From the NCBI GenBank assembly GCA_019058295.1, contig JAHPZI010000007.1, positions 47,465-111,464 of the forward strand: a stretch of DNA of 64,000 bases, in the 5' to 3' direction. The notes under the pieces are model-generated. The model saw only the letters and a list, made by a program, of their open reading frames with translations, did no database searches and was not told the DNA's origin. This stretch comes from Promethearchaeota archaeon (lineage in GTDB: Archaea; Asgardarchaeota; Lokiarchaeia; Sigyniarchaeales; SOKP01). The translations under genes and the position numbers were made by a program. Position 1 is the stretch's first letter. The number at the start of each line of letters is the position of its first letter. This document shows, piece by piece, positions 14,683 to 53,778 of this stretch.

Positions 14683-15591
14683 ATGAATGGTCTAAAGAAG
14701 CATTACACGAGAAAATTACAAAATATTAGTAGGTCATATTTAGTAAGTTTGCCAAGCGAATTTTTAAAGAAACATGGATTAAAAGATAAAAAAAATGCAT
14801 CAGTAATTATAAAAATCAATGAAGATTGGTCCTTGACTATAATTCCTGAGAAATTAGCAGAACAAATTTCAGATGAGATAATAATTGAAGTATATAGAGA
14901 AGTCGCTCGTGAGGTTGTTGAGAAAGTACTGTCGGGTACAGAAAAAATTACTATTCTTTCTGATAAGAAAATTGATGAAGATATAAGAAAAGAAATACGA
15001 TTTTTTGTTGATGGATTGCCTCAAGCTGAAATACTTGAAGATGAGGCTCAGAGAATTGTTGTATACAATATTGGTTTTAAGAATATTCCAAATAGAAAGA
15101 TTTTACATCGATTATTATCAATCGTCTCTGATATATTTGAAAATATTAAAAAAGAAAAAACATTAGAGTTAGAGCTGAATTTTAAAGATCTAAAAAAATT
15201 CTATATAATTTTAAATGGAAATATTCGGACATATCATAATTCCGGATTTCTTGAGTATGGCGATGAAGAATTAACGCAAAAAAAAGCTTCAGACTATCGT
15301 ATTTTCTCATACCAACTTAAAATAATAGGATATATTTTAAGGGATATCGAAATTGACGATTCTATTTTAGAGTTGTTCACTAAAATTGAAACTTATTTCA
15401 ATGCGATTTTTGATGCCTTTTTGAAAAAGAACGAACGATTAGCACACGAATTATGGTTTCAAAATCAACCTCTTGAACGAGAAGGTAGAAAACTTATGGA
15501 TGGTGTGTCAAGTGAGTTTAAATATAAGATAAACCTTCTATTAATGATTGTTAAGATTTGTAGAAGTATGACGGCTCTATTGTATTCATGA
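14683..15591 (+). CDS. AbrB-PhoU-like regulator
   Basis: N-terminal RKLQ...SYLVSLP swapped-hairpin motif followed by helical PhoU-like region. Confidence 0.75.
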   Translation: MNGLKKHYTRKLQNISRSYLVSLPSEFLKKHGLKDKKNASVIIKINEDWSLTIIPEKLAEQISDEIIIEVYREVAREVVEKVLSGTEKITILSDKKIDEDIRKEIRFFVDGLPQAEILEDEAQRIVVYNIGFKNIPNRKILHRLLSIVSDIFENIKKEKTLELELNFKDLKKFYIILNGNIRTYHNSGFLEYGDEELTQKKASDYRIFSYQLKIIGYILRDIEIDDSILELFTKIETYFNAIFDAFLKKNERLAHELWFQNQPLEREGRKLMDGVSSEFKYKINLLLMIVKICRSMTALLYS

Positions 15592-15647: not shown

Positions 15648-16190
15648 CTATATTTCCTCGTGAGTTAATAATTTCCTAATTATTGTTTTGAAGGCTTCTC
15701 CTACATTTTCTCCAGTTTTCGCTGATGTTTTATAAAATCCGAGAAATCCACGCTTATCAACTATTTTTTGAACTTCTGCATCTTTTGAGTTTTTATCAGC
15801 TACTAAATCGAGTTTATTTCCTAATATTACAATAGGGATATCACCACAAAACTTTTTTATATCACCGTGCCAAGCAGGTATTCGTTTTAAACTTTCCTTA
15901 CCGTGATCAGAATCTTCTAAAGAAAAAACTATAATTCCACAGCTCGTACCCTTGTAAAAAACAGGTCGAAGAAAAAAATGGTCATCTTGTCCAGCTATAT
16001 CCCATAAGGATAAATGACACTTTAGATTATCGACCTCGTCGGAATAAGATGAAAATTGAGCACCGATGGTTTTAGTATATTGCGTTTGAAACGAGGCTTG
16101 TGTGTATCTCCGAATTAAAGATGATTTTCCTACTTGCCCATCTCCAATAACTGTTACCTTAAAAACAAAGTCAGCCTCACTGTCACTCAT
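15648..16190 (-). CDS. Rab/Ras-like small GTPase
   Basis: GDGQVGKSS, YTKTIG, WDIAGQ, GNKLD, KTSAKTG; no C-terminal prenylation Cys. Confidence 0.95.
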   Translation of the reverse strand: MSDSEADFVFKVTVIGDGQVGKSSLIRRYTQASFQTQYTKTIGAQFSSYSDEVDNLKCHLSLWDIAGQDDHFFLRPVFYKGTSCGIIVFSLEDSDHGKESLKRIPAWHGDIKKFCGDIPIVILGNKLDLVADKNSKDAEVQKIVDKRGFLGFYKTSAKTGENVGEAFKTIIRKLLTHEEI

Positions 16191-16354: not shown

Positions 16355-17137
16355 TTGACAGAACTGGATAGAAATTTAGAATGTATATTTGTAATGGTAG
16401 GGGCAATTTTTGTTGCATCTATTGTCATTATTGCAGCAATTTTATCGTATTTTGAGATGGGATATAATCCGATTGAATATACTATTAGCGAACTAGCACT
16501 TTATAGATATAGAACATTATTTAGTATTGGTTTAGTTTCAGCAGGGTGTTTACTTATTCCTTTTTTTATAAAACTAGAAAGAGAATTAGTTAATATAAAA
16601 GAAAATTTAAGAAAAAGCGCCACAGCAGTCGCTATTTTTGCTTCAATTTGTACTTCCATGGTTGGCGTAATTCCTGATATAGAATATCGTAAAGTATTTG
16701 ATCTTTTTCACATATTTGTTGCAGTGATTGCATTTGGCGGTTCTGCTACTTATATCTTCCTCTACAGTATCTTAATGTATAAAGGACATAGTTCTCCCAT
16801 GTATAAAGGACCTCAATTCAAACGACACGTATCATATTATGGTATTTTCATCTTTGGGAATTTTATTATACTACTCCTTATTTTTATACCCCCAATAGAA
16901 TGGATGTTATTTATTAATATTTTAACTTGGAACTTTATAACTGCCTATTACATAATTAAATATAAATTTTCTGGCATTCCAGGTATTTATTATAAAGAAG
17001 AACAATATCCAGAAATGCTGGAAAAATTTGAAGAATCCTTGATGATATTAAAACAGTTAAATTTAGAGGATGATCCTATGGCAGAGGTTCTTAAAGAAAA
17101 TATAAAATTTATAAAAAGTGCTCAAGATAAAAACTAA
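16355..17137 (+). CDS. DUF998-like membrane protein with C-terminal TPR-like helices
   Basis: YNPIEYTISEL, several hydrophobic segments, VGVIP, H after TM3, EW; soluble helical tail. Confidence 0.65.
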   Translation: MTELDRNLECIFVMVGAIFVASIVIIAAILSYFEMGYNPIEYTISELALYRYRTLFSIGLVSAGCLLIPFFIKLERELVNIKENLRKSATAVAIFASICTSMVGVIPDIEYRKVFDLFHIFVAVIAFGGSATYIFLYSILMYKGHSSPMYKGPQFKRHVSYYGIFIFGNFIILLLIFIPPIEWMLFINILTWNFITAYYIIKYKFSGIPGIYYKEEQYPEMLEKFEESLMILKQLNLEDDPMAEVLKENIKFIKSAQDKN

Positions 17138-17186: not shown

Positions 17187-17624
17187 ATGCTAAATTTGGT
17201 AGGAACAGGTGGAACCTTCGATCGTCTTCATGATGGGCACAGGCTTTTAATTGAAACAGCTCTAAAAATTTCCAATAAAGTAGTTATAGGATTGACAACT
17301 CAGAAGATGCTCAAACGAAAGAAATTTGCCGATATTATTGAAGATTTTGAAACAAGAAAAAAGCATCTTGAAAATTTCATCAGTAGCATTGGCGGGTCAG
17401 ACCGAGTTGAAATTATTGAACTCACTAATCCATACGGTCCTCCAATCAAAGAACCAGAATACGAGGGTATAGTTGCAAGTCAAGAAACCTTCTTGAATTC
17501 AGTTCGATTAAATGAATTAAGAGTTGCCAATGGATTTGATCCCTTAGTTATTATTCTGATCCCAATGGTAATGGGTTCAAACGACCAACGACTTAGCTCG
17601 ACGGCTATAAGAGCTAACCTTTAA
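17187..17624 (+). CDS. coaD: Archaeal phosphopantetheine adenylyltransferase
   Basis: GGTFDRLHDGH, PYGP, VASQET, RLSSTAIR. Confidence 0.9.
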   Translation: MLNLVGTGGTFDRLHDGHRLLIETALKISNKVVIGLTTQKMLKRKKFADIIEDFETRKKHLENFISSIGGSDRVEIIELTNPYGPPIKEPEYEGIVASQETFLNSVRLNELRVANGFDPLVIILIPMVMGSNDQRLSSTAIRANL

Positions 17625-17786: not shown

Positions 17787-20700
17787 TTGAGAAATAAAAA
17801 TTTTTATCTAATAGCTACAACAGTTTTTTTTCTTGCATTATTCGTGCTCTCCATAAATCACAAAAAAGAAACCGAAGAGAGCGACCCAAGTTTAAATGAG
17901 AATATTGAAATAGAAACGCCAAATGAGATTACTGATCCAGATGATATTACTATAGAAACACCTAGACCAAAAACCTCGGGGGCTTATAATTTAGATTTCA
18001 TACACATTGATGGCAATTGGTCAGCAGCAGAAGCTGAGCTATGGTGTTATAAACAAAATGGAGTATATATTATCGAAAATGTTACAATTGATGCAACAAA
18101 CTCGCCCATTAATAGCGGGATTTTGATTAATAATTCCAATGATGTAAGTTTTATTGTTAGAAATTGCACAATTTATAATGTAGCAGGACCAGAGTCTCCT
18201 CGCGCAGGAGGTATAAAGCTTGTAAATTGCTCAAAGGGAACCCTCTTCAATAACACTTGTAGAGATGGCGTTGTCAGTGGAAGATCAAGCGGAATTTTAG
18301 TGTGGGATTACTGTCATAATATTACTGTTGAAGATAACTATATAGATTATCATCATTATCATGGAATTCAATTATGCGGTGAAACCGAAGGAATAGCCCC
18401 TTATAACGTCACAGTAAAAAATAATAAAGTCTATGATTCTCAATATTATGGCGTCTACTTAGTAAGGGCTGATAATAATACCATCAGAGACAACTTTGTT
18501 AGTGATAGTGATAGAAGAAATATACGTTTAGTATCAAATTGCGATTATAACAGAATTATTAATAACACTGTGACTGATACTGGAGCCCCCCCGGGTTATT
18601 CAACCCACCATGGAATAGTATTATCGAGTGAATGTGATAATAACATCATAAGAGAGAATAAAGTTACCCAAATTTACGATCATGGTATCTACTTAATTAA
18701 TAATTGCCATAATAATACCATCAAGGACAATACAGTAAAAGATAATGGAGATGACGCAATACGTTTAGAAGATAATTGTGACGATAATAAGATTATTAAT
18801 AATACCGCATCTGACACAGCAGCAGCCCATGGTCAAGATAATGGGATATGGATAGAAAATGGATGCGAGAGAAACATGATCATCAATAACACTTGCAACG
18901 ATAATGGTCAGGAGGGAATATACATTTATGATGATTGTGATGACAATATAATCTCTTACAATATCGTAAAAGATAATACCTATCGTGGATTTTATTTATA
19001 CTCTGGATGCGACAACAATACTATTTTCAACAATACAGTAATTAACAATGGATATAATGGAATACTATTAATTACTAATTGCCATGATAACAATGTCTCT
19101 AAAAATTATGCTTGTGGTAATGGGCATGATGGAATATTACTACAAGTAAATTGTGATTACAATACAATATTTAATAACACCTGTAATAATAACATTCGAA
19201 ATGGAATCTATATATATGACGGTTCTGATTACAACAATATAACTTATAATACAGCAAATGGTAATGGAGATTCGGATCAGGATAGTGGGATATATCTGTA
19301 TAATAGTGATTATAATGTAATCCATAATAACACTGCCAACGGAAATTATTATTCAGGGATATATTTATACTCTGATTGTAATGATAACAATATTACTAAT
19401 AATGTTTGCAGTGAAAATGATCAATATGGGATTAAGCTATACACGGATTGCCATAATAACACCCTTGACAATAACACCGCAAACGACAACTTTCAATACG
19501 GGATACAGTTACATACAAATTGCACTGATAATGACATTATTAATAACTTAGCATTAAACACAATAGAGGGGTATGATCAAAATGTTGGAATACGCATTGC
19601 ATGGTATTGTGATTACAATACCTACGCAAATAACACTGCCAATGGTAATACCGACTCTGGAATAAGTATAGCTTATTATTGTACTGACAGCATCATAGTA
19701 AACAACACTTGTAAGAATAACGGTAATGGGATTGAATTTTATAGTAATTGCGAAAACCATATAATTGAAAATAATACTGTCAACGAAAATTACCAATATG
19801 GGATATTATTAGAGATTAACTGCAATAATAACAATATCACAGGAAATATTGGGATTGGTAATGATATCTCAGGAATAAGGTTATATACTAATTGTGATTT
19901 TAATCTGATTTTAAATAACACTTTTAGTTATTCTGTATCAGAGCATGGAATTGATTTAGAGACTGGTTGTGTTTTTAACACAATAATTAATAACACACTT
20001 ATGCATAACAATTTGAGAGGTATCCGATTATATGATGATTGCGACAACAACACGATTTCGGGAAACACCGCATACTATAATGGTAAGGGAATAGAATTGG
20101 ATAATTATTGTGATAATAACACGATTTTGGGGAATTCCTTAAAATATAATTCTCATGGAATACATGTGGCAAATTATTGTGAGGATAACTTCATTATCGG
20201 AAATAATTGTAGTAAGAATACAGGACGGGGTATTGCAATAGGACAAAGAGAAAGCCATTATACTATAATAGATAATAATTATATATGTAATAATGGATAT
20301 CGTGGAATTGAAATCTATTTTTGGTGTGGTAGCACCATTATTACTAACAATATTATAAATAATAATATAGATAATGGACTCAGAATAGTTTCTGCTAGTA
20401 GTGGCACTATAGTTCATAATAACACTATTAATGGTAATACTAATATAGGAATATATATTTCTGATAACACTGATAACTGTAGGATATCACATAATATTGT
20501 CAATGATAATAACAACTATGCGGTATATATAGCAGGGACTAGTAGTGAAAACACTATTCTTATAGGAAACACGTTCAATAACAATAATCTCTTCTATAAT
20601 CTGGGCACAAACACTCTAGATGCGATGAACTGCTTTGACGGCGTGTGTACACCTCTGATAATTGATGCGGATAGCAGCACCGCTGACTCATTTACATGGG

Positions 20701-23700
20701 AAGAGGTTCTAACATATGTTCCTTGGTTTTCTGGTGCGGGTACCTTGAACGATCCTTATATGATCGAGGGTATAACTATTAACGCATCTGGAAACGCAGT
20801 AGGTCTTTATATAATTGATTCTAAAGATGTCTATTTTAAGATTAAAGATTGTACCGTGTACGAGGCGGGTAGTGGCAGTGGTTATGATGCGGGAATTAAA
20901 CTAGAAAATACATGTAATGGTACAATTATTAATAATATAGTCTCGAATAATGAAAATAATGGAATTTGTTTGATAAGTGGATGCCGTAATAATACGATCA
21001 CGGAGAATACTGGAATTGGTAATAAGGATTCCGGATTAAGATTGCAAACTGATTGTGATTATAATATTATTTCAAATAATAATTTTAGCTATTCTGATCC
21101 GACTTATGGTAATGATGGAATTCAAATAGAGAGTGATTGCGATTACAATACAATAATTAATAATATACTTAATAATAACAAAAGGAATGGTCTCCGATTT
21201 TGGGATACTTGTAATGATAATAAAATATTGAAAAACACCATAAATGGTAATATAGAAAGCGGTATAGTTATAACATTAGATTCTGATAATAATAATTTCT
21301 CGGAAAATACTATATCTAATAACTTAATTTATGGTGCAGGTATACACGCGCCTACATGCGATAACAATTTATTTTACAACAATACTTTCACGGGAAATAC
21401 CAACTCTCATATATATGATGAATCATCTAATACGAAATATAATAATACCCAAATTGGTAATTATTGGGACGATTATGGGGGTATAGATGCGGATGATAAC
21501 GGTATAGGTGATACTGATTATAATGTTTATGGGTCTCTATGGGATGAGCTCCCTATTTGGTGGGATGCACCCGTTGTATCAATTACTACTCCATCATATA
21601 TGGACGTCTTTGGGAACGCCACGATTAATTTTACTTTAAGTATTACTAGGACAATTCCAAGTTTGTGTAATATGTGGTATATGTTAGTAAACAATACAAA
21701 TCCAACTGATAAGACGGGTAATCAAACATTTACCAAATATCCTTCGCACTATATTTTATATAATTTATGGAACACATTTGAAAATGGAACCATTAAGATT
21801 TGGTTTTTTTTAAATGATTCAAGAGGTTATATTGGTTCTGCAAGTGTCATTATTCAAAAAAATATCTATGCTCCTACAATTTCAATCGTAAAAATAGGTT
21901 TTTATGGCGTAGGAGGGGTATCAACAATTAATTTTACCGTCGCTTTAGATGGTCCAGATGTGGATACACTTTGGTATAGAATTTATAACGGGACTTGGTC
22001 AAAAAATTACACTTTTAATGCAATATCAGGGCAAATGAATAAAGAAATAAATCCCAATTTATGGAAATCACTTGGTAATGGTACTTTAACAATTCAATTC
22101 TTTTTAAATGATACTTTAGCCCCTGAAACAACCAAAAAAGAACGCAAATTCATAAAAGATATTGTCCCTCCAAGTTTAATTATTACAAGTCCCTCTAACA
22201 ATGATGTTGCAGGAATTTCTCCACCAGATATTACATTTAATATTAATGAAAGCCAACTCCATCAAATTTGGTATGAATTGGATGATGGCACTGGCTATGG
22301 TAATTATACGTATCGTGATGTTATCGCGGATTTATTTGATAAAATTAAGTATGACTATTGGAAATTATTAAATAATGGAACAGTTATCATTAAATTCTGG
22401 GCAAATGATACAGGGGGTAATGTAAATTACACTATTGTATCACTTTCGCTACGAAAAGACATCTATAAACCCATAATTGATGATATTGATAGATTTTATG
22501 AAGGATGGACATACGGAAGCACACCTCCACTTTATACTCTTGAGATAACTGAACCTCATTTTTATCAGATGTGGTATACTTTATTCGATGGAACAAACCT
22601 TTATACTTCTTCAACTTATACATCATTAAGTGGCTCAATTGACCAAACTCTTTGGAACAATTTAAACAATGGAGAAATTAATGTCACATTTTATGTTGAA
22701 GACCAAGCAGGAAATGTTGGATATAAAGATTATGCTGTTATAAAAGAAGTGGCAATTCTCCCTGGATCACCACCTCCTGCAGATGACGATGATGACGATG
22801 ATGACGGAGAAGATGATACAATGGATTGGATAATTCGTGCATTATTAGCGGGACTAATTAGTGGTACTGTAGGAATTTCTCTCAGAATTGCTTATAGCAA
22901 GATTAAGAAAAAGAGAGAAGCTGCGCGACAGGCAGCAGCACCAACTGTAATCTTAAAAAAGAAATATCAAATTGTCCATCATGACTTTTTAACACCATAT
23001 GGCAAAGTAGAGAAAAAGGAGTTCAAAGTTGGAATTGCACAAATTGGGTTATCAAAAACGGGCAATCTTATAACCGAGTTATTCGACATGACCCCTGAAG
23101 GACTCATGAGAATTCGTGAAAATATGGTAGAAACCGTAAGCGCTAATATTAAAAGTATGGTTAAACAAGCTCATGAAAATGGTATTAACATATTACTCTT
23201 CCCTGAAATGACATTTGACCTTAACTATAAAAGAATGGTAAAAGATGTCAAGCAATGGGCGCAAGATTACAATATGTATATAATTACAGGCGGATATCAT
23301 GATATCAAAACTAAACAAAATATTTGCGCTGTATTTGGACCAGAAGGCATTCAATGGGAACAAGAGAAACATACACCAGCTACCATTCACTTTGGAAAGC
23401 ATGTATTTACAGAAGCAATAGAGATCCATCATCCTCCGCATAAACTTCACATTTGCGCCACCGAATATGGAAGAATCGCAATAGCGATATGTCGAGATTT
23501 TCTTGATATGGATTTACGGGTTGAAATTAAGAATTGCGAGCCACCTGTGGATCTTTTCTTTAATCCAGCTTATACTCCAGTTACAGTTGATTTTGAGGCA
23601 ACACATTTTGATGCCCGTCGAGCCGTATATGCATACACTTTCTTTGCTAATGTTGCTGAATATGGCGGAACAATTATAAATACACCAGAAAAGGACAGGA

Positions 23701-23837
23701 CAAAAAGGCAGATCCCTCCAAAAGAAGAAGGTCTTATATTTAAGGATGTAGATCTATTTAGCTTGCGGTCAGAGCGTAATAAATGGGAAAGAAGGCAAAG
23801 TAAGGAAAAGAGATATATCCAAAGCACAAGATCATAA
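17787..23837 (+). CDS. Large surface protein: signal/anchor, NosD/PbH1 beta-helix repeats, Ig-like repeats, TM helix, cytoplasmic carbon-nitrogen hydrolase domain
   Basis: Dozens of GIxLxxxCxxNxIxxN repeats; GNYW cap; Ig-like D..G/N modules; poly-Asp then TM WIIRALLAGLISGTVGISLRIAY; KVGIAQ, LFPE, QEKH, ICRDF, NPA. Confidence 0.85.
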   Translation: MRNKNFYLIATTVFFLALFVLSINHKKETEESDPSLNENIEIETPNEITDPDDITIETPRPKTSGAYNLDFIHIDGNWSAAEAELWCYKQNGVYIIENVTIDATNSPINSGILINNSNDVSFIVRNCTIYNVAGPESPRAGGIKLVNCSKGTLFNNTCRDGVVSGRSSGILVWDYCHNITVEDNYIDYHHYHGIQLCGETEGIAPYNVTVKNNKVYDSQYYGVYLVRADNNTIRDNFVSDSDRRNIRLVSNCDYNRIINNTVTDTGAPPGYSTHHGIVLSSECDNNIIRENKVTQIYDHGIYLINNCHNNTIKDNTVKDNGDDAIRLEDNCDDNKIINNTASDTAAAHGQDNGIWIENGCERNMIINNTCNDNGQEGIYIYDDCDDNIISYNIVKDNTYRGFYLYSGCDNNTIFNNTVINNGYNGILLITNCHDNNVSKNYACGNGHDGILLQVNCDYNTIFNNTCNNNIRNGIYIYDGSDYNNITYNTANGNGDSDQDSGIYLYNSDYNVIHNNTANGNYYSGIYLYSDCNDNNITNNVCSENDQYGIKLYTDCHNNTLDNNTANDNFQYGIQLHTNCTDNDIINNLALNTIEGYDQNVGIRIAWYCDYNTYANNTANGNTDSGISIAYYCTDSIIVNNTCKNNGNGIEFYSNCENHIIENNTVNENYQYGILLEINCNNNNITGNIGIGNDISGIRLYTNCDFNLILNNTFSYSVSEHGIDLETGCVFNTIINNTLMHNNLRGIRLYDDCDNNTISGNTAYYNGKGIELDNYCDNNTILGNSLKYNSHGIHVANYCEDNFIIGNNCSKNTGRGIAIGQRESHYTIIDNNYICNNGYRGIEIYFWCGSTIITNNIINNNIDNGLRIVSASSGTIVHNNTINGNTNIGIYISDNTDNCRISHNIVNDNNNYAVYIAGTSSENTILIGNTFNNNNLFYNLGTNTLDAMNCFDGVCTPLIIDADSSTADSFTWEEVLTYVPWFSGAGTLNDPYMIEGITINASGNAVGLYIIDSKDVYFKIKDCTVYEAGSGSGYDAGIKLENTCNGTIINNIVSNNENNGICLISGCRNNTITENTGIGNKDSGLRLQTDCDYNIISNNNFSYSDPTYGNDGIQIESDCDYNTIINNILNNNKRNGLRFWDTCNDNKILKNTINGNIESGIVITLDSDNNNFSENTISNNLIYGAGIHAPTCDNNLFYNNTFTGNTNSHIYDESSNTKYNNTQIGNYWDDYGGIDADDNGIGDTDYNVYGSLWDELPIWWDAPVVSITTPSYMDVFGNATINFTLSITRTIPSLCNMWYMLVNNTNPTDKTGNQTFTKYPSHYILYNLWNTFENGTIKIWFFLNDSRGYIGSASVIIQKNIYAPTISIVKIGFYGVGGVSTINFTVALDGPDVDTLWYRIYNGTWSKNYTFNAISGQMNKEINPNLWKSLGNGTLTIQFFLNDTLAPETTKKERKFIKDIVPPSLIITSPSNNDVAGISPPDITFNINESQLHQIWYELDDGTGYGNYTYRDVIADLFDKIKYDYWKLLNNGTVIIKFWANDTGGNVNYTIVSLSLRKDIYKPIIDDIDRFYEGWTYGSTPPLYTLEITEPHFYQMWYTLFDGTNLYTSSTYTSLSGSIDQTLWNNLNNGEINVTFYVEDQAGNVGYKDYAVIKEVAILPGSPPPADDDDDDDDGEDDTMDWIIRALLAGLISGTVGISLRIAYSKIKKKREAARQAAAPTVILKKKYQIVHHDFLTPYGKVEKKEFKVGIAQIGLSKTGNLITELFDMTPEGLMRIRENMVETVSANIKSMVKQAHENGINILLFPEMTFDLNYKRMVKDVKQWAQDYNMYIITGGYHDIKTKQNICAVFGPEGIQWEQEKHTPATIHFGKHVFTEAIEIHHPPHKLHICATEYGRIAIAICRDFLDMDLRVEIKNCEPPVDLFFNPAYTPVTVDFEATHFDARRAVYAYTFFANVAEYGGTIINTPEKDRTKRQIPPKEEGLIFKDVDLFSLRSERNKWERRQSKEKRYIQSTRS

Positions 23838-49269: not shown

Positions 49270-52200
49270 TTAATCATCTAGCCCTTTCTCTTTTAATAAC
49301 TCATCAAAATCGGTTGTTTTTTTCTTTTTAATTTTTTTGGATTCAATCTTTTTTGGGGATTTTATTTTTTTCTTTGTTGATTTTTTAGGTTTTTTTTCAA
49401 TTTTTTTCTTCTTTTCAACTTTCTTGAGTGATTTTGGTTCAGTAATAGCTTTTTTAGGCTTTTTTGATGGTTTTTTAACCCTTTTTGGTAATTTTTTTGC
49501 TTTTTTCAAGGATTTCTCTTCTTTTTCATCAATTTTTTCAGCTAATAAAGTATCTAAATCTGTAGTTTTTTTCTTTTTAGCTTCTTTAGGTTCAATTCTT
49601 TCCTCAATAATGATTTCTGCCGGTTCGCCTTTAAGTTTGGCTTTTTCACCTTCTCCCGGTTTTTCTTCTATTTTCTTGGGTTCTAATTCAGAGACTTTTA
49701 CATATCTACCTCTGCGTGGTTTCTTTTTAAGAGGTTCTTCTGGTAGTTTTTCTATCTTCTTTTTAATTCTTTTAGCGTAAATAAAAGTTAATAAACCAAT
49801 TAAAACAAATAATAAAATCATAATCACTAGAAAATATTCGAGGATATAATCACCTAATTCTTTATCAATGACTTCCACAGTAATTGTATCTTGTTTGATA
49901 TAGGGTTCATTTGAAAAAATATTTTCAGCAAATATTGTTATTTGTATATCTAATTCATTATAATCAGTGTCTGAAACCTCTATTACAACAATAATCTCAA
50001 TGGAATCGCCTGGAATAAACCAGTTTAATAAATTATTATCTTGTCCTCTTATTTTGTAATCCAAATCCTTATCCTCTATATTGATTGTTATATCAATTAT
50101 TTTTAAAATTGAATTTCCTGTGTTTTTTAGCTTAAAAGTTATAGGCGCGTCTGTATTTCTATACACAATAGATTCATCATCTTTACTAGATATTGAAATT
50201 TTATTCAATGGTTTTATAATTCCTATTGTTATATTAATGGAATTATTTAATCCGTAATCGTCTCCTTTCCAACTTAATCTAATTACTAAAGTTTCTTCAA
50301 AATCAAATTGTAAAGTATTAATAGAAAAGCTCGTGAAACCATTTGCATCAGTTAATTCTGTTTGATCAGAGATATTAACCCATTTATTATTTTGATAGTA
50401 TTGACATAAAACGTTTTTATTTGGCAATGGAATCCCAAATTCAGTAGTTAAAACTGAACTTAAATCAAAAGTGTTTCCTTTGATTGGATTTTCAGGATTT
50501 ACTACGATGTCATTAAAAAAAGTGTCTACTTTTAACTCAAATTCATCAATAAACTGATTATAGGTGCTAATATAGCAATCATCGTATACATTTATTGTTA
50601 AAATAGTTTTATTAGGAAGATAAACGCATTTGTCTCTCTCAATAGACTTAATAATTATTGATCCGCTACCCACGGTTGATATTGTTCCAAGAATATAGCC
50701 TTCAAAAATATTATCGGTTTCATTAATTATTAAGGAATAATTATTACTAATATAATTGCCTGCAAAATTATTTTCAATATACACAGAGACTATAGTTTTG
50801 GCTCCACTTTGCCTAATTGGAGCATTTAAACCATTCCAAGTTAAATCAGCCTTTATTTTTGGTATAGTTAAATTAACAGTAAATTCTTTAGTGTCTCCCC
50901 CCCCAGGACTATATTTTCCAAGATTTATCTCTTCAGAGATAGTTTTATTAATAATCCAATTCTCGTTGGCAAGAGATACAAGCTTTACTGATATTTTAAC
51001 ATCTACATCAAATCCTAGATTCATATTCTGAATTAATAATTTAAATTTAACTGTTTCCCCTGGATTTAATATAGTTTCATTCTGAAGAAAATTTTTCATA
51101 TATACTTCAAGTTTATTTTCCTCATCGTAATCATAAGAGAATGTTCCCTCATTAATAGAAAGAGTATTATTCACGGGATAAAAATTTGGAACATAATGTC
51201 CAGTAGTATTTTGTATTGATCCGATTAATACTTGATAGTTATCTAGAACATTATTGATAGGGTCAGCAATTACATAATTGAGACCATTATCTCTTTCATA
51301 TGTGCAATTTTGTAGATTAATATCATACGCATCAATATGAATATTGATTTTATCACATCCGATAATTGAACCATTTGTCCAGAAAAATCCTAATGTATAA
51401 TCTTTCGCTAATGGAACAGCCTGAGTTATATTTAATATAGTATGATTACTAAAATCATAGTAAAGATATGATCCATCTAAGGCTTTTTTACCCTTAGTAG
51501 AGAAAAGTTCCGCAGTAAGAAATTTATCATTATTTGGATAAAACAACGAAACATTTGCATAGGCATTTTTATTTTTAGGAGCTAATCCATTGTGATCTCG
51601 TATATCAACTTTTACAGAGATATTATCTCCGTACATAAAACCATAGGTTTCCCATAAAATTCCTTTAAAATTAATATAACTATGCATATCGTAAATCGCA
51701 TTTGGGCTTGTTAAATTTAGAGAATAATTACCAGTAAATTTAGCCTTATCTAAGGGATCGATAATACTTGCATTTACAACAAATTTTTCATAATTCGGTA
51801 GCTCATTAAAAGAAAATTCTCTGTTTGTCTTGTTATATGTTTGACTAACATTAGGGACAGTTAAATTCTGAGCTGTATAATATTCAGGATAAATATACCA
51901 GAATTGCGTAAAGTTCCAATTGTCGAATTTAGAATCAAATAAATTTAAAGAGTAATTAAAGATCCATTCAGGTGTTCTAAGATAATTCACATGATAGAAA
52001 GATGTAATATTTTCTTCAATAAAAGCCTCAACGGTATAATTTACGTTAAATTTGAATCCTTTAATATAGGTTTTATTCCAAGTAAGATTCACTCGAAATT
52101 TGTTATCTGCATAAATTCCAATCGAAGGGTTAAATTCGTGAGACCAAAGTCCCCAACCCCATCTAAGAGCTGGATTATTACGCGCTTCTGAATCCTGTCC

Positions 52201-53778
52201 TGTAATCAATTCTAATAAATCAGTGATAGAATCATCAAATGTAATATTTTGAATTCTTAAAGTGTTTATTTCATCTATTTCAAAATCCGAAGGCATATAT
52301 CCTCTGGTTACATTTAATATAAATTGACTGGCATCTAAGAGTCCCAGAGCTCGAGCCTCAGTGGAAAGAAAACAGAAGGCTCTCTTCCAAGTGTCACCAT
52401 TATCTGTTGTCGTTTTTAATACATGATCATTCTCCCCATCCCCAAAAGGATCGGTAATAGGAAGAGTCACCAGACTATAAATTTCAGAATCGGAACTATT
52501 AGATTTAATCACAATAAAATAATTGTAACGAGTTAAATTATTGGTTTTACTGGAATTAAAATCAAAATAAAAAAGCTCATCCCCATGATAATCGCTATAT
52601 TCCCATAATTTTGAATCTAATGGCCTTTGTGTTAAATTTGGTTGTATTAAAGTAGCACCACTACCAGGAGACTGTATTAAATTATTTTCTCCAACAAACC
52701 CTTCTCTTGTCATCGTATTATTTGCTCGATAGAGTGAAATATTTAATCTAGCATTTCTAGCCTTTGTAAGGTTTAAAGTTCTTATCCATACATAAAATCC
52801 ATTTACAGTTGATTTTAATCCGCGTAAATCAAATTCTAAAGCAACATATTTTGTATCCGTTATTTCTAATTCTAAAACTAAAAAAGATATGGGCTTAAAT
52901 TCATATAAAGTAACATTAAAATCTGAATTATCACTTCTATCGAAAGTAAATCGAATGAGTGTACAATTTGTAGAGTTAATAAAATTTAAATTCTTATTTA
53001 TTATTATTTCATCAAGATTATGAGGTCCGAGTGTACTATTTATCTCAATTGTATTTGTTATATTTATAAAATCTCCAGTATCGTAAAAATCCTTCATATA
53101 AACTGTTAAATTAGCATTGAGGCTAATATTATAAATGGAATTTAATATGAATCCTATAATATTTTTTCTATCAAAATCAACCGATTTACTAATTCTACTT
53201 TCAACACCAGAAAAATTTGCACAAATGGTGAAATTTACGAAGCCATAACTAGAACTTATGTTCCAATATGTTAAATAATTATCATCAGTTAAATAATTGA
53301 ATCCGCCATTTAAATAACCAGTTCCATTATGAATTGTTATACTTGAATAATCTGAATCATATTCATACTCCTCAAAATAACTACCCCCAGAGGGATTTAA
53401 AGCGCTATCACTTTCTATGTTATATTCTGTGGTAAAATTATTATCAAAATTGAAAAATAATTCTCCAGAACTAAGATTTGAGTTAGATACTGGAGCCGTA
53501 ATATTAAAATATCCATTATTATTTTCCGAACTAGATTTATTATTCATAAAAGTTCGAACTGTTCGATTAACTCCTGATCCAGTAATAAAATCAGTTAGAT
53601 TTAAGTTTCCTGAACTATGAGGAATTTTAATATCTTCCAAATCAATTGGATTTATTATATCATTTTTATCAGATTTAGAATCAAATTTATTTATTGCAGG
53701 TAAATTGGATATAAGTATTAAAATAATAAAAATACCTATTAAAGAAAGTTTCTTGATTTCCTTTTTTTTCGGAAGCAC
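49270..53778 (-). CDS. Large single-pass surface (glyco)protein with Lys-rich cytoplasmic tail
   Basis: N-terminal basic-hydrophobic signal; many NxS/T sequons; Ig-like modules (TDANG, LKNTG); TM near the C-terminus; ~165-aa K/E-rich tail. Confidence 0.8.
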   Translation of the reverse strand: MLPKKKEIKKLSLIGIFIILILISNLPAINKFDSKSDKNDIINPIDLEDIKIPHSSGNLNLTDFITGSGVNRTVRTFMNNKSSSENNNGYFNITAPVSNSNLSSGELFFNFDNNFTTEYNIESDSALNPSGGSYFEEYEYDSDYSSITIHNGTGYLNGGFNYLTDDNYLTYWNISSSYGFVNFTICANFSGVESRISKSVDFDRKNIIGFILNSIYNISLNANLTVYMKDFYDTGDFINITNTIEINSTLGPHNLDEIIINKNLNFINSTNCTLIRFTFDRSDNSDFNVTLYEFKPISFLVLELEITDTKYVALEFDLRGLKSTVNGFYVWIRTLNLTKARNARLNISLYRANNTMTREGFVGENNLIQSPGSGATLIQPNLTQRPLDSKLWEYSDYHGDELFYFDFNSSKTNNLTRYNYFIVIKSNSSDSEIYSLVTLPITDPFGDGENDHVLKTTTDNGDTWKRAFCFLSTEARALGLLDASQFILNVTRGYMPSDFEIDEINTLRIQNITFDDSITDLLELITGQDSEARNNPALRWGWGLWSHEFNPSIGIYADNKFRVNLTWNKTYIKGFKFNVNYTVEAFIEENITSFYHVNYLRTPEWIFNYSLNLFDSKFDNWNFTQFWYIYPEYYTAQNLTVPNVSQTYNKTNREFSFNELPNYEKFVVNASIIDPLDKAKFTGNYSLNLTSPNAIYDMHSYINFKGILWETYGFMYGDNISVKVDIRDHNGLAPKNKNAYANVSLFYPNNDKFLTAELFSTKGKKALDGSYLYYDFSNHTILNITQAVPLAKDYTLGFFWTNGSIIGCDKINIHIDAYDINLQNCTYERDNGLNYVIADPINNVLDNYQVLIGSIQNTTGHYVPNFYPVNNTLSINEGTFSYDYDEENKLEVYMKNFLQNETILNPGETVKFKLLIQNMNLGFDVDVKISVKLVSLANENWIINKTISEEINLGKYSPGGGDTKEFTVNLTIPKIKADLTWNGLNAPIRQSGAKTIVSVYIENNFAGNYISNNYSLIINETDNIFEGYILGTISTVGSGSIIIKSIERDKCVYLPNKTILTINVYDDCYISTYNQFIDEFELKVDTFFNDIVVNPENPIKGNTFDLSSVLTTEFGIPLPNKNVLCQYYQNNKWVNISDQTELTDANGFTSFSINTLQFDFEETLVIRLSWKGDDYGLNNSINITIGIIKPLNKISISSKDDESIVYRNTDAPITFKLKNTGNSILKIIDITINIEDKDLDYKIRGQDNNLLNWFIPGDSIEIIVVIEVSDTDYNELDIQITIFAENIFSNEPYIKQDTITVEVIDKELGDYILEYFLVIMILLFVLIGLLTFIYAKRIKKKIEKLPEEPLKKKPRRGRYVKVSELEPKKIEEKPGEGEKAKLKGEPAEIIIEERIEPKEAKKKKTTDLDTLLAEKIDEKEEKSLKKAKKLPKRVKKPSKKPKKAITEPKSLKKVEKKKKIEKKPKKSTKKKIKSPKKIESKKIKKKKTTDFDELLKEKGLDD

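Follow-up and report, generated by a model that had tools for sequence, protein, structure and literature searches.

Nitrilase-superfamily enzymes are active as oligomers, and nitrilase domains are only now being recognized as immune effectors. In the class 3 UG/Abi reverse transcriptase (RT)-nitrilases DRT1 (UG1) and UG5, which are anti-phage proteins, the nitrilase is the C-terminal output domain of a larger protein that acts as a sensor. For DRT1 (PDB 9yfd), tetramer assembly enables the nitrilase effector, a swapped and conserved C-terminus acts as a lid, and the substrate is still to be identified (PMC13275509). Another defense system, Rst_RT-nitrilase-Tm, has been mentioned in a preprint (bioRxiv 10.1101/2024.10.26.620412). 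In Toll-like and IL-1-type receptors, a variable ectodomain and one membrane helix are joined to an effector-type domain in the cytoplasm, and in known cases induced proximity governs the activity of this domain. Transmembrane receptors with an inner effector enzyme, a hallmark of signaling and immunity in eukaryotes, have little documentation in archaea. Here, we analyzed a 64,000-nucleotide (nt) stretch of contig JAHPZI010000007.1 from a Promethearchaeota archaeon (hereafter, the window), in which one gene encodes P0001, a 2016-amino-acid (aa) membrane protein with a beta-helix ectodomain, an immunoglobulin (Ig)-like stalk, a predicted transmembrane helix, and a C-terminal nitrilase-superfamily domain. 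An earlier reading made from the sequence only (the sequence-only reading) had proposed a single-pass receptor-enzyme in which binding of a ligand or contact clusters and activates an intracellular amidase. We assign a probability of roughly one half to this receptor-effector interpretation, i.e., to outside-in, oligomerization-gated activation of the nitrilase in P0001.

P0001 would work most like the sensor-nitrilase fusions of defense systems, and its layout resembles that of Toll-type receptors. With DRT1 it shares an intact catalytic tetrad and a conserved extreme C-terminal tail, and the RT-associated and CARF-fused nitrilases of PADLOC, together with DRT1/UG5, are the best profile matches of its domain. 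In contrast to DRT1 and UG5, P0001 has no RT, DNA adduct, or cytosolic sensing, the putative sensor being an ectodomain across a helix; its host is archaeal, its domain belongs to a separate Asgard-specific clade, and its defense role is putative. No RT family was present in P0001 or its neighbors among the Pfam, NCBIfam, and PADLOC matches, those to the DRT profiles being confined to the nitrilase portions of these profiles, and a classification of P0001 as a defense-associated RT (DRT) was rejected because of this lack. Rst_RT-nitrilase-Tm likewise pairs its nitrilase effector with a membrane component, which, going by the name of the system, is presumably a separate one; it is proteobacterial and RT-nitrilase based, whereas P0001 is devoid of RT and carries its helix and large ectodomain in one polypeptide. 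The Toll-like layout is also seen in Asgard TIR surface proteins such as P0286, which has the same Ig-like stalk module as P0001, yet the output of P0001 is a nitrilase instead of a TIR domain and the ectodomain heads lack homology. We know of no adaptor or downstream reader for P0001. Apolipoprotein N-acyltransferase (Lnt) also has a nitrilase-fold domain attached to the membrane, but Lnt is a multi-pass protein with this domain on the outer face, whereas P0001 has one internal helix and a nitrilase predicted on the cytoplasmic side. Given this opposite topology and a TIGR00546 score of 16.2 bits against a cutoff of 132.9, identification as Lnt was rejected. The literature searched on Asgard nitrilase receptors or TPR-nitrilases contained no description of the P0001 family, and the words "nitrilase," "Asgard," and "Lokiarchae" are all absent from the text of the eLife 2020 conflict-systems paper.

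The nitrilase domain, its membrane helix, and the fusion

The P0001 gene is a single stop-free frame of 6,051 nt. Its closest homolog, P0003 (also named Promethearchaeota archaeon at NCBI), starts at the equivalent position with the same MRNKN residues, and P0002 is the identical cluster representative of P0001 in the protein collection. The AlphaFold2 model of the C-terminal domain, for which 44 homologous domains were aligned (alignment A1), was confident, with a predicted local distance difference test (pLDDT) score of 92.3 and a predicted template modeling (pTM) score of 0.90. With this model, Foldseek retrieved mouse Nit2 at an E value of 8.7e-17 and a total of 213 PDB chains at E ≤ 0.001. 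Structural alignment by VIA-align gave a Z score of 26.2 for Nit2 (root mean square deviation of 3.5 over 239 aa), and amidases, carbamoylases, and nitrilases all scored between 23 and 25. In A1, the K1861 column is invariant, and conservation reaches 90% or more in those of E1807, E1876, and C1902. The Glu-Lys-Cys triad that the sequence-only reading had placed at 23205, 23367, and 23490 was exact in its coordinates, and E1876, which that reading did not list, corresponds in the alignment to the FQES-motif Glu of mouse Nit2, which we take to be the second Glu of the nitrilase catalytic tetrad. Given the confident nitrilase-fold model and these conserved residues, the C-terminal domain is predicted to be a nitrilase-superfamily enzyme with a complete Glu-Lys-Glu-Cys set. 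The Pfam CN_hydrolase profile (PF00795) reached 20.3 bits on P0001 alone (E 3.7e-4), which is just under its gathering cutoff of 23.2; for this reason, we base the superfamily assignment on the fold prediction, the catalytic residues, and the relatives, among which P0122, from the same clade, scores 39.8 and P0005 to P0007 have a precomputed match.

The defense-system nitrilase profiles of PADLOC scored far above this generic family, with E values of 7.5e-15 for RTasNitrilase, 2.6e-10 for CARF_nitrilase, and 2.3e-9 for RT_UG5-nitrilase. A phmmer search with the domain also yielded weak matches, one to mouse Nit2 and one to DRT1 in its nitrilase part. The PADLOC profiles and the weak DRT1 match confirm the link to defense-type nitrilases made in the sequence-only reading. 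At its C-terminal end, P0001 carries the motif YIQSTR. The consensus [FY]IQSTR forms the end of 14 of the 15 family members inspected, the other one (P0153) having a degenerate FVQSTR followed by two residues. The tail of P0001 has low pLDDT and is disordered in the monomer model; by analogy with DRT1, it could serve as a lid for the adjoining protomer.

A hydropathy scan of P0001 revealed just two membrane-like segments, residues 5 to 25 and 1681 to 1703, the latter being the sole internal one. The transmembrane segment expected at about 22820 to 22900 thus contains the hydrophobic segment at 22827 to 22895, and the KIKKKR stop-transfer signal noticed earlier lies in SKIKKKRE, directly after the helix. 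The first segment could be either a signal peptide or a signal anchor. Consequently, the "single-pass" label of the sequence-only reading holds for the internal helix, and for the entire protein only if the N-terminal segment is a cleaved signal peptide. Such an N-terminal segment was found in five of the six other receptor-type proteins described below; the exception, P0122, lacks a Met start and is apparently truncated at its N-terminus. In all seven proteins, a hydrophobic helix is followed by a basic stop-transfer stretch, a linker, and then the enzyme. The helix pattern AGxISGxVG.S.RIAY is common to six of them, and the linker is longer in P0005, P0006, P0007, and P0122 than in P0001. The part of P0001 ahead of the helix contains 57 NxS/T sequons and the part behind it none, and 47 of the 51 cysteines precede residue 1680. 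Across the seven receptor-type proteins, sequon density is 3.4 to 5.6 per 100 aa outside versus about zero inside. Among 30 non-receptor relatives of the domain, 25 showed no hydropathy peak and five had one or two weak, isolated peaks (1.67 to 1.78). The charge asymmetry at the helix, the sequon and cysteine skew, and the existence of other fusion forms with typically cytosolic modules strongly suggest that the nitrilase domain of P0001 is cytoplasmic, as first proposed. By these rules of thumb, P0001 and its six homologs display a type I single-pass layout, with an exported ectodomain, one helix, and a cytoplasmic catalytic domain.

The C-terminal region was searched in two ways, in a word-indexed protein collection and by an exhaustive HMMER scan. 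These searches returned six further proteins with a beta-helix head and a nitrilase of the P0001 type, originating from NCBI, ENA, JGI, and Logan assemblies: P0003 (1800 aa, with a nitrilase 90 to 91% identical to that of P0001), P0004 (1561 aa), P0005 (1783 aa), P0006 (1616 aa), P0007 (2549 aa), and P0122 (926 aa, comprising NosD, PKD, TSP3, and nitrilase parts). A maximum-likelihood tree of 48 domains groups the seven receptor-type nitrilases in one clade with 100/100 support and a stem of 0.38 changes per site; under midpoint rooting, this clade is nested within a radiation of soluble forms. Other assemblies and a nitrilase phylogeny were among the checks put forward with the sequence-only reading, and both agree with a genuine fusion, the order of parts being the same in all six relatives and the receptor-type domains forming a clade. 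The source genome assembly consists of 30 contigs, is 79% complete, and presumably derives from a metagenome, a setting in which a beta-helix gene and a nitrilase gene could be joined by mis-assembly. The six additional proteins come from four independent data sources and retain the same order of parts, helix included, the same neighbors stand on four of the relatives' contigs, and the nitrilases have a clade of their own. Because of these independent assemblies, we consider a chimera effectively refuted.

Ectodomain, uneven divergence, and proposed mechanism

According to Pfam and NCBIfam, the first 1,260 residues of P0001 contain parallel beta-helix families only, with nine Beta_helix/NosD stretches and 16 parallel-beta-helix repeats (PF13229, 1.2e-101; PF05048, 1.1e-97; TIGR03804, 5.3e-79 over 16 stretches). 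In our reading of the sequence, a Cys-rich junction precedes the restart of the second of two beta-helix blocks. The Cys/Asn-ladder beta-helix of the sequence-only reading is therefore retained, with its length corrected from about 1,100 aa to about 1,200 aa for the two blocks in total. An assignment as a NosD ortholog was rejected (TIGR04247, 77 bits versus a cutoff of 300). The Ig-like modules announced earlier correspond to four repeats of about 100 aa that align mutually on a WY...dGt...W..L.NGt..f..D..GN pattern and for which Pfam gives a weak Big_13 match alone. The poly-Asp run was likewise recovered, and an acidic stretch before the helix is also present in P0003, P0004, P0005, P0006, and P0122; none was seen in the inspected stretch of P0007.

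The stalk region (residues 1240 to 1715) has matches in large surface proteins of Asgard archaea that bear other heads, i.e., SBBP propellers, kelch, LamG, lamin-tail, or beta-helix, most of which end with a helix and a basic tail of 6 to 25 aa. In agreement with a check put forward with the sequence-only reading, the same stalk also occurs with other cytoplasmic domains. P0286 (1304 aa, an NCBI metagenome protein) has the same Ig-like stalk and a helix followed by HEPN (Swt1-like) and TIR domains, a predicted Toll-like layout in an Asgard archaeon. P0274 has a B-box-like tail behind the stalk, and the LamG-headed P0275 (residues 1842 to 2130) and P0283 (residues 1076 to 1360) have in common a conserved 285-aa cytoplasmic tail (46% identity), to which Pfam assigns no family and whose fold model is poor (pLDDT 61.2). 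The source genome encodes at least 10 other stalk-bearing proteins, six of which have a complete C-terminus with tails of 9 to 25 aa. Another, located outside the window (G000:C10:122450-123970, minus strand), is cut by the contig end and has a 240-aa cytoplasmic tail in which a Cys-rich cluster resembling a zinc finger is combined with a coiled coil. Tentatively, these proteins could belong to an Asgard outside-in receptor repertoire built on one Ig-like stalk and helix with interchangeable effector or "death-type" domains (nitrilase, HEPN plus TIR), in which P0001 would convert recognition of a virus, glycan, or cell into oligomerization-gated nitrilase activity, possibly controlled by the Ras-like GTPase encoded in its conserved neighborhood. 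If true, this repertoire would parallel, in prokaryotes, the logic of Toll-like receptors, with an enzymatic output previously unseen.

The two sides of the membrane have diverged unevenly. Between P0001 and P0003, identity amounts to 90% in the nitrilase and 93% in the helix plus linker, compared with 39% in the stalk and 56% in the first beta-helix, which also contains indels; the proteins differ in length by 216 residues. Compared with P0004, P0001 shows 85% identity in the nitrilase and 31 to 49% in the ectodomain blocks, versus 73%, 72%, and 85% for the neighboring Ras-like GTPase, DUF998 protein, and pantetheine-phosphate adenylyltransferase (PPAT), respectively. The outside has therefore diverged far more rapidly than either the inside or the genomic background. 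This pattern bears on the idea of a polymorphic-toxin-like surface filament whose C-terminal nitrilase is released or delivered to competitors, as in CdiA or Rhs, systems that P0001 loosely resembles as a giant beta-helix surface protein with a modular C-terminal enzyme. In P0001, a conserved C-terminal domain follows a variable N-terminal part, the reverse of polymorphic toxins. In addition, a conserved helix with a positive-inside flank precedes the enzyme in all seven proteins, the same domain occurs on typically cytosolic TPR, Ras plus kinase, and AAA parts, and the P0001 gene is followed by a 183-nt gap and a PFL-like enzyme gene instead of a small immunity-type gene. With its ends reversed, a helix intervening, and no immunity gene next to it, a polymorphic toxin was rejected as very improbable.

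The main alternative, which we regard as rather unlikely, is an anchored adhesin or envelope protein whose nitrilase is constitutive and tethered to act at the membrane without any transmembrane signal. The six stalk proteins of the same genome with complete C-termini have short tails and so are plain anchors, NosD/CASH beta-helices are typical of glycan-binding surface proteins according to family descriptions, and the neighboring genes are housekeeping ones, all of which would suit such a protein. However, this nitrilase also works in many soluble contexts, where it is about 60% identical and keeps both the catalytic set and the C-terminal motif, and therefore nothing ties the substrate to the membrane. 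Conservation of the helix and linker equals that of the enzyme, which a passive anchor would not lead one to expect, and the nearest profiles are those of effector nitrilases from defense systems.

As for the receptor-effector interpretation, four features of P0001 fit control from outside by induced proximity: its GxxxG helix is conserved, its linker is short, its C-terminal tail is invariant, and its ectodomain is hypervariable. From the parts, their order, their conservation pattern, and their family relations, we infer that they work jointly as follows. A surface ligand (a glycan, a virus particle, or a neighboring cell) would bind the ectodomain and alter the packing or clustering of the membrane helices, thereby bringing the nitrilase domains into the oligomer required for superfamily activity. 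The YIQSTR tail might complete or gate the active site of the adjoining protomer, and the enzyme would then hydrolyze an amide bond, or a C-N bond of related type, in a metabolite or protein of the cytosol, leading to a defense-like, growth-arresting, or signaling response. Several points weigh against this scheme. We infer the coupling step from ectodomain to enzyme in its entirety, and the topology, strongly suggested as it is, derives from rules of thumb and not from a dedicated predictor or experiment. Rapid ectodomain divergence fits any exposed surface protein equally well. Since most surface proteins with the same stalk have short tails (9 to 25 aa), the ectodomain may be mainly an adhesin or envelope component. 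The receptor form was present in one of the 249 representative genomes searched. Finally, the locus is no defense island, its neighbors (PPAT, PFL-like, amidohydrolase, molybdopterin oxidoreductase) being housekeeping or metabolic. As a testable outside-in system in archaeal relatives of eukaryotes, P0001 would bear on the origin of eukaryotic receptor architectures, and a membrane-tethered nitrilase offers a natural test system for induced-proximity switching of such an enzyme.

Spread of the nitrilase module and the linked gene block

Within 1.84 billion proteins, the domain matched 178 cluster representatives at E ≤ 0.001, including 49 at E ≤ 1e-30, and in nearly all matches it was C-terminal in proteins of 500 to 1400 aa. 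Elsewhere it is fused to TPR, to Ras/Roc plus a protein kinase, to AAA_16 plus an alpha/beta hydrolase, to beta-helix plus PKD, and to longin-type parts, a variety of partners that the sequence-only reading had suggested looking for. The domain is thus strongly supported as an Asgard-specific clade of plug-in C-terminal effector modules. One of these proteins, P0127 (785 aa), joins a Ras/Roc GTPase, a protein kinase, and a P0001-type nitrilase in a ROCO/LRRK-like arrangement. More distant relatives (25 to 35% identity, about 1120 aa) were considered as RT-nitrilases and rejected, as they turned out to be HEAT-repeat fusions. The module is present in 55 of 201 sampled Asgard genomes, representing 5 of 27 families, with one to eight copies per carrier genome that are often in tandem and fall in size classes near 1275 and 870 aa. 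The membrane form of about 2000 aa was found in the source genome of the window alone among the 201 genomes of the phylum, and no nitrilase paralog besides P0001 was detected in this genome, which is 79% complete. Within the genus, a soluble 1276-aa form was found in one genome and stop-riddled C-terminal fragments alone in two, and two others yielded nothing; none of these genomes has a receptor form. The fragments L037 (G209:C2:148504-148734) and L038 (G215:C196:23918-24124), nitrilase C-terminal remnants with stop codons, are likely decayed nitrilase copies. Such scattered occurrence, together with paralog arrays and decayed copies, is characteristic of accessory genes, including those related to conflicts.

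The soluble Asgard TPR- and longin-nitrilases of about 1275 and 870 aa (P0088, P0132) resemble P0001 in a module 55 to 61% identical, the same N-terminal extension of this module, the catalytic set, the FIQSTR end, and a radiation restricted to the phylum. They differ in having no membrane segments and in their variable part, which is made of helical repeats or longin-type domains. Moreover, they often lie in tandem arrays or adjoin JAB-E1-E2 operons, whereas the receptor form is one long-stemmed clade.

The coordinates of P0001 features and of the neighboring genes are listed in Table 1. The window is AT rich (about 30% GC). The 162-nt spacer 5′ of the P0001 gene is very AT rich, with TATA-like runs, and fits the presence of an own promoter, of which it is no proof. 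The DUF998 gene diverges from the GTPase gene and its product has five hydrophobic segments (six peaks, two overlapping). At least three other loci also combine the 302-aa protein (47 to 54% identity) with the Ras/DUF998/PPAT block. Beyond the PFL-like gene, the opposite strand carries amidohydrolase and molybdopterin oxidoreductase/Fe-S genes. Farther along the window, a 1502-aa open frame at 49270-53778 on the minus strand matches no Pfam family at E ≤ 0.001.

Table 1. Features of P0001 and neighboring genes, in window coordinates (ORF, open reading frame; TM, transmembrane)
Feature	Position	Strand	Residues of P0001	Basis or remark
P0001 gene, 2016-aa membrane protein	17787-23837	+	1-2016	ORF, TTG start
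N-terminal hydrophobic segment, after MRNKN	17799-17861	+	5-25	Kyte-Doolittle peak 2.13
Beta-helix block 1, NosD/CASH type, Cys/Asn ladder	17964-20816	+	~60-1010	PF13229, PF05048, TIGR03804
Beta-helix block 2, NosD-type C-terminal cap	20904-21572	+	~1040-1262	TIGR04247, TIGR03804 in 1100-1270
Four tandem Ig-like stalk modules	21573-22766	+	1263-1660	Self-alignment; weak Big_13
Acidic run D8-G-E-DD, just outside membrane	22782-22817	+	1666-1677	Sequence
Predicted TM helix WIIRALLAGLISGTVGISLRIAY, GxxxG motif	22827-22895	+	1681-1703	Hydropathy 1.69
Basic juxtamembrane linker SKIKKKREAARQAAAPTV	22896-22949	+	1704-1721	Positive-inside signal
Predicted cytoplasmic nitrilase-superfamily (C-N hydrolase) domain, 295 aa	22950-23834	+	1722-2016	AlphaFold2, Foldseek, VIA, PADLOC
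Predicted catalytic Glu (FPE)	23205-23207	+	E1807	Column E93 of A1, nearly invariant
Predicted catalytic Lys	23367-23369	+	K1861	Column K147 of A1, invariant
Predicted second Glu of tetrad (FTEA)	23412-23414	+	E1876	Column E162 of A1, nearly invariant
Predicted nucleophile Cys (ICRDF)	23490-23492	+	C1902	Column C188 of A1, nearly invariant
Conserved C-terminal-end motif YIQSTR	23814-23831	+	2010-2015	Family comparison
302-aa protein, weak AbrB/MazE-like N-terminus	14683-15591	+		Accompanies Ras/DUF998/PPAT block
Ras-like small GTPase	15648-16190	-		PF00071 1.6e-40; G motifs intact in 12 orthologs
DUF998 multi-pass membrane protein	16355-17137	+		PF06197 6e-10
PPAT	17187-17624	+		NF001985 1.2e-39, above cutoff
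PFL-like glycyl-radical enzyme, directly downstream of P0001 gene	24020-26554	+		PF02901 8.6e-167 plus Gly_radical

All five receptor loci inspected adjoin, within three genes, a block encoding a Ras-like GTPase (about 180 aa), a DUF998 protein, and PPAT. The order is Ras(-), DUF998(+), PPAT(+), receptor(+) in the window and L014; receptor(+), Ras(-), DUF998(+), PPAT(+), 302-aa gene(+) in L011 and L013; and PPAT(-), DUF998(-), Ras(+), receptor(+) in L012. The divergent Ras/DUF998 pair is kept in 12 loci (window, L011 to L014, and L029 to L035), with PPAT following in the window and L011 to L014. A nitrilase-ending gene lies no more than three genes from the pair in 8 of these 12 loci and displays two unrelated N-terminal architectures, that of the membrane receptor or that of an 870-aa soluble form; no nitrilase gene is nearby at the other four. 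In three other genomes (L029, L030, and L031), the Ras gene is directly followed by a gene for an 870-aa soluble nitrilase. As for a possible in situ origin of the receptor gene from the 870-aa gene of this Ras locus, the receptor clade and the 870-aa clade are apart in the free tree, and joining them is not rejected by an approximately unbiased (AU) test (p 0.25).

This linkage is real as an observation and could reflect common ancestry, a slot for recombination, or a partnership in function. In the last case, the Ras-like GTPase, perhaps with the DUF998 protein, would regulate the nitrilase or use its oligomerization to cluster and position the surface protein from the inside out, so that control would come primarily from within the cell. 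The proximity in five of five loci despite three arrangements, the recurrence of an orthologous GTPase gene beside a soluble nitrilase of a different clade in three other genomes, and the Ras-kinase-nitrilase fusion argue for such a link. Nevertheless, four orthologous Ras/DUF998 loci have no nitrilase gene close by, the five receptor loci may reflect just common ancestry, and PPAT is a housekeeping enzyme, so that the block may be conserved for unrelated reasons. The conserved catalytic residues further imply that the domain is more than a clustering scaffold. Altogether, we consider a GTPase-linked role improbable. A complex prediction for the GTPase with the nitrilase domain, GTP, and Mg gave no answer (score 0.00), which bears neither way.

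The genes adjoining the 870-aa nitrilase gene include those for JAB, ThiF-type E1, and E2 proteins, which lie directly downstream in two genomes and after two genes in the third. In L029 (8721-16000), Pfam identifies JAB, ThiF-type E1, and E2 (UQ_con) on the same strand, and a RING-like zinc-finger gene is adjacent on the opposite strand. On these matches, the JAB, E1, and E2 genes represent a predicted accessory ubiquitin-like cassette linked to the nitrilase family.

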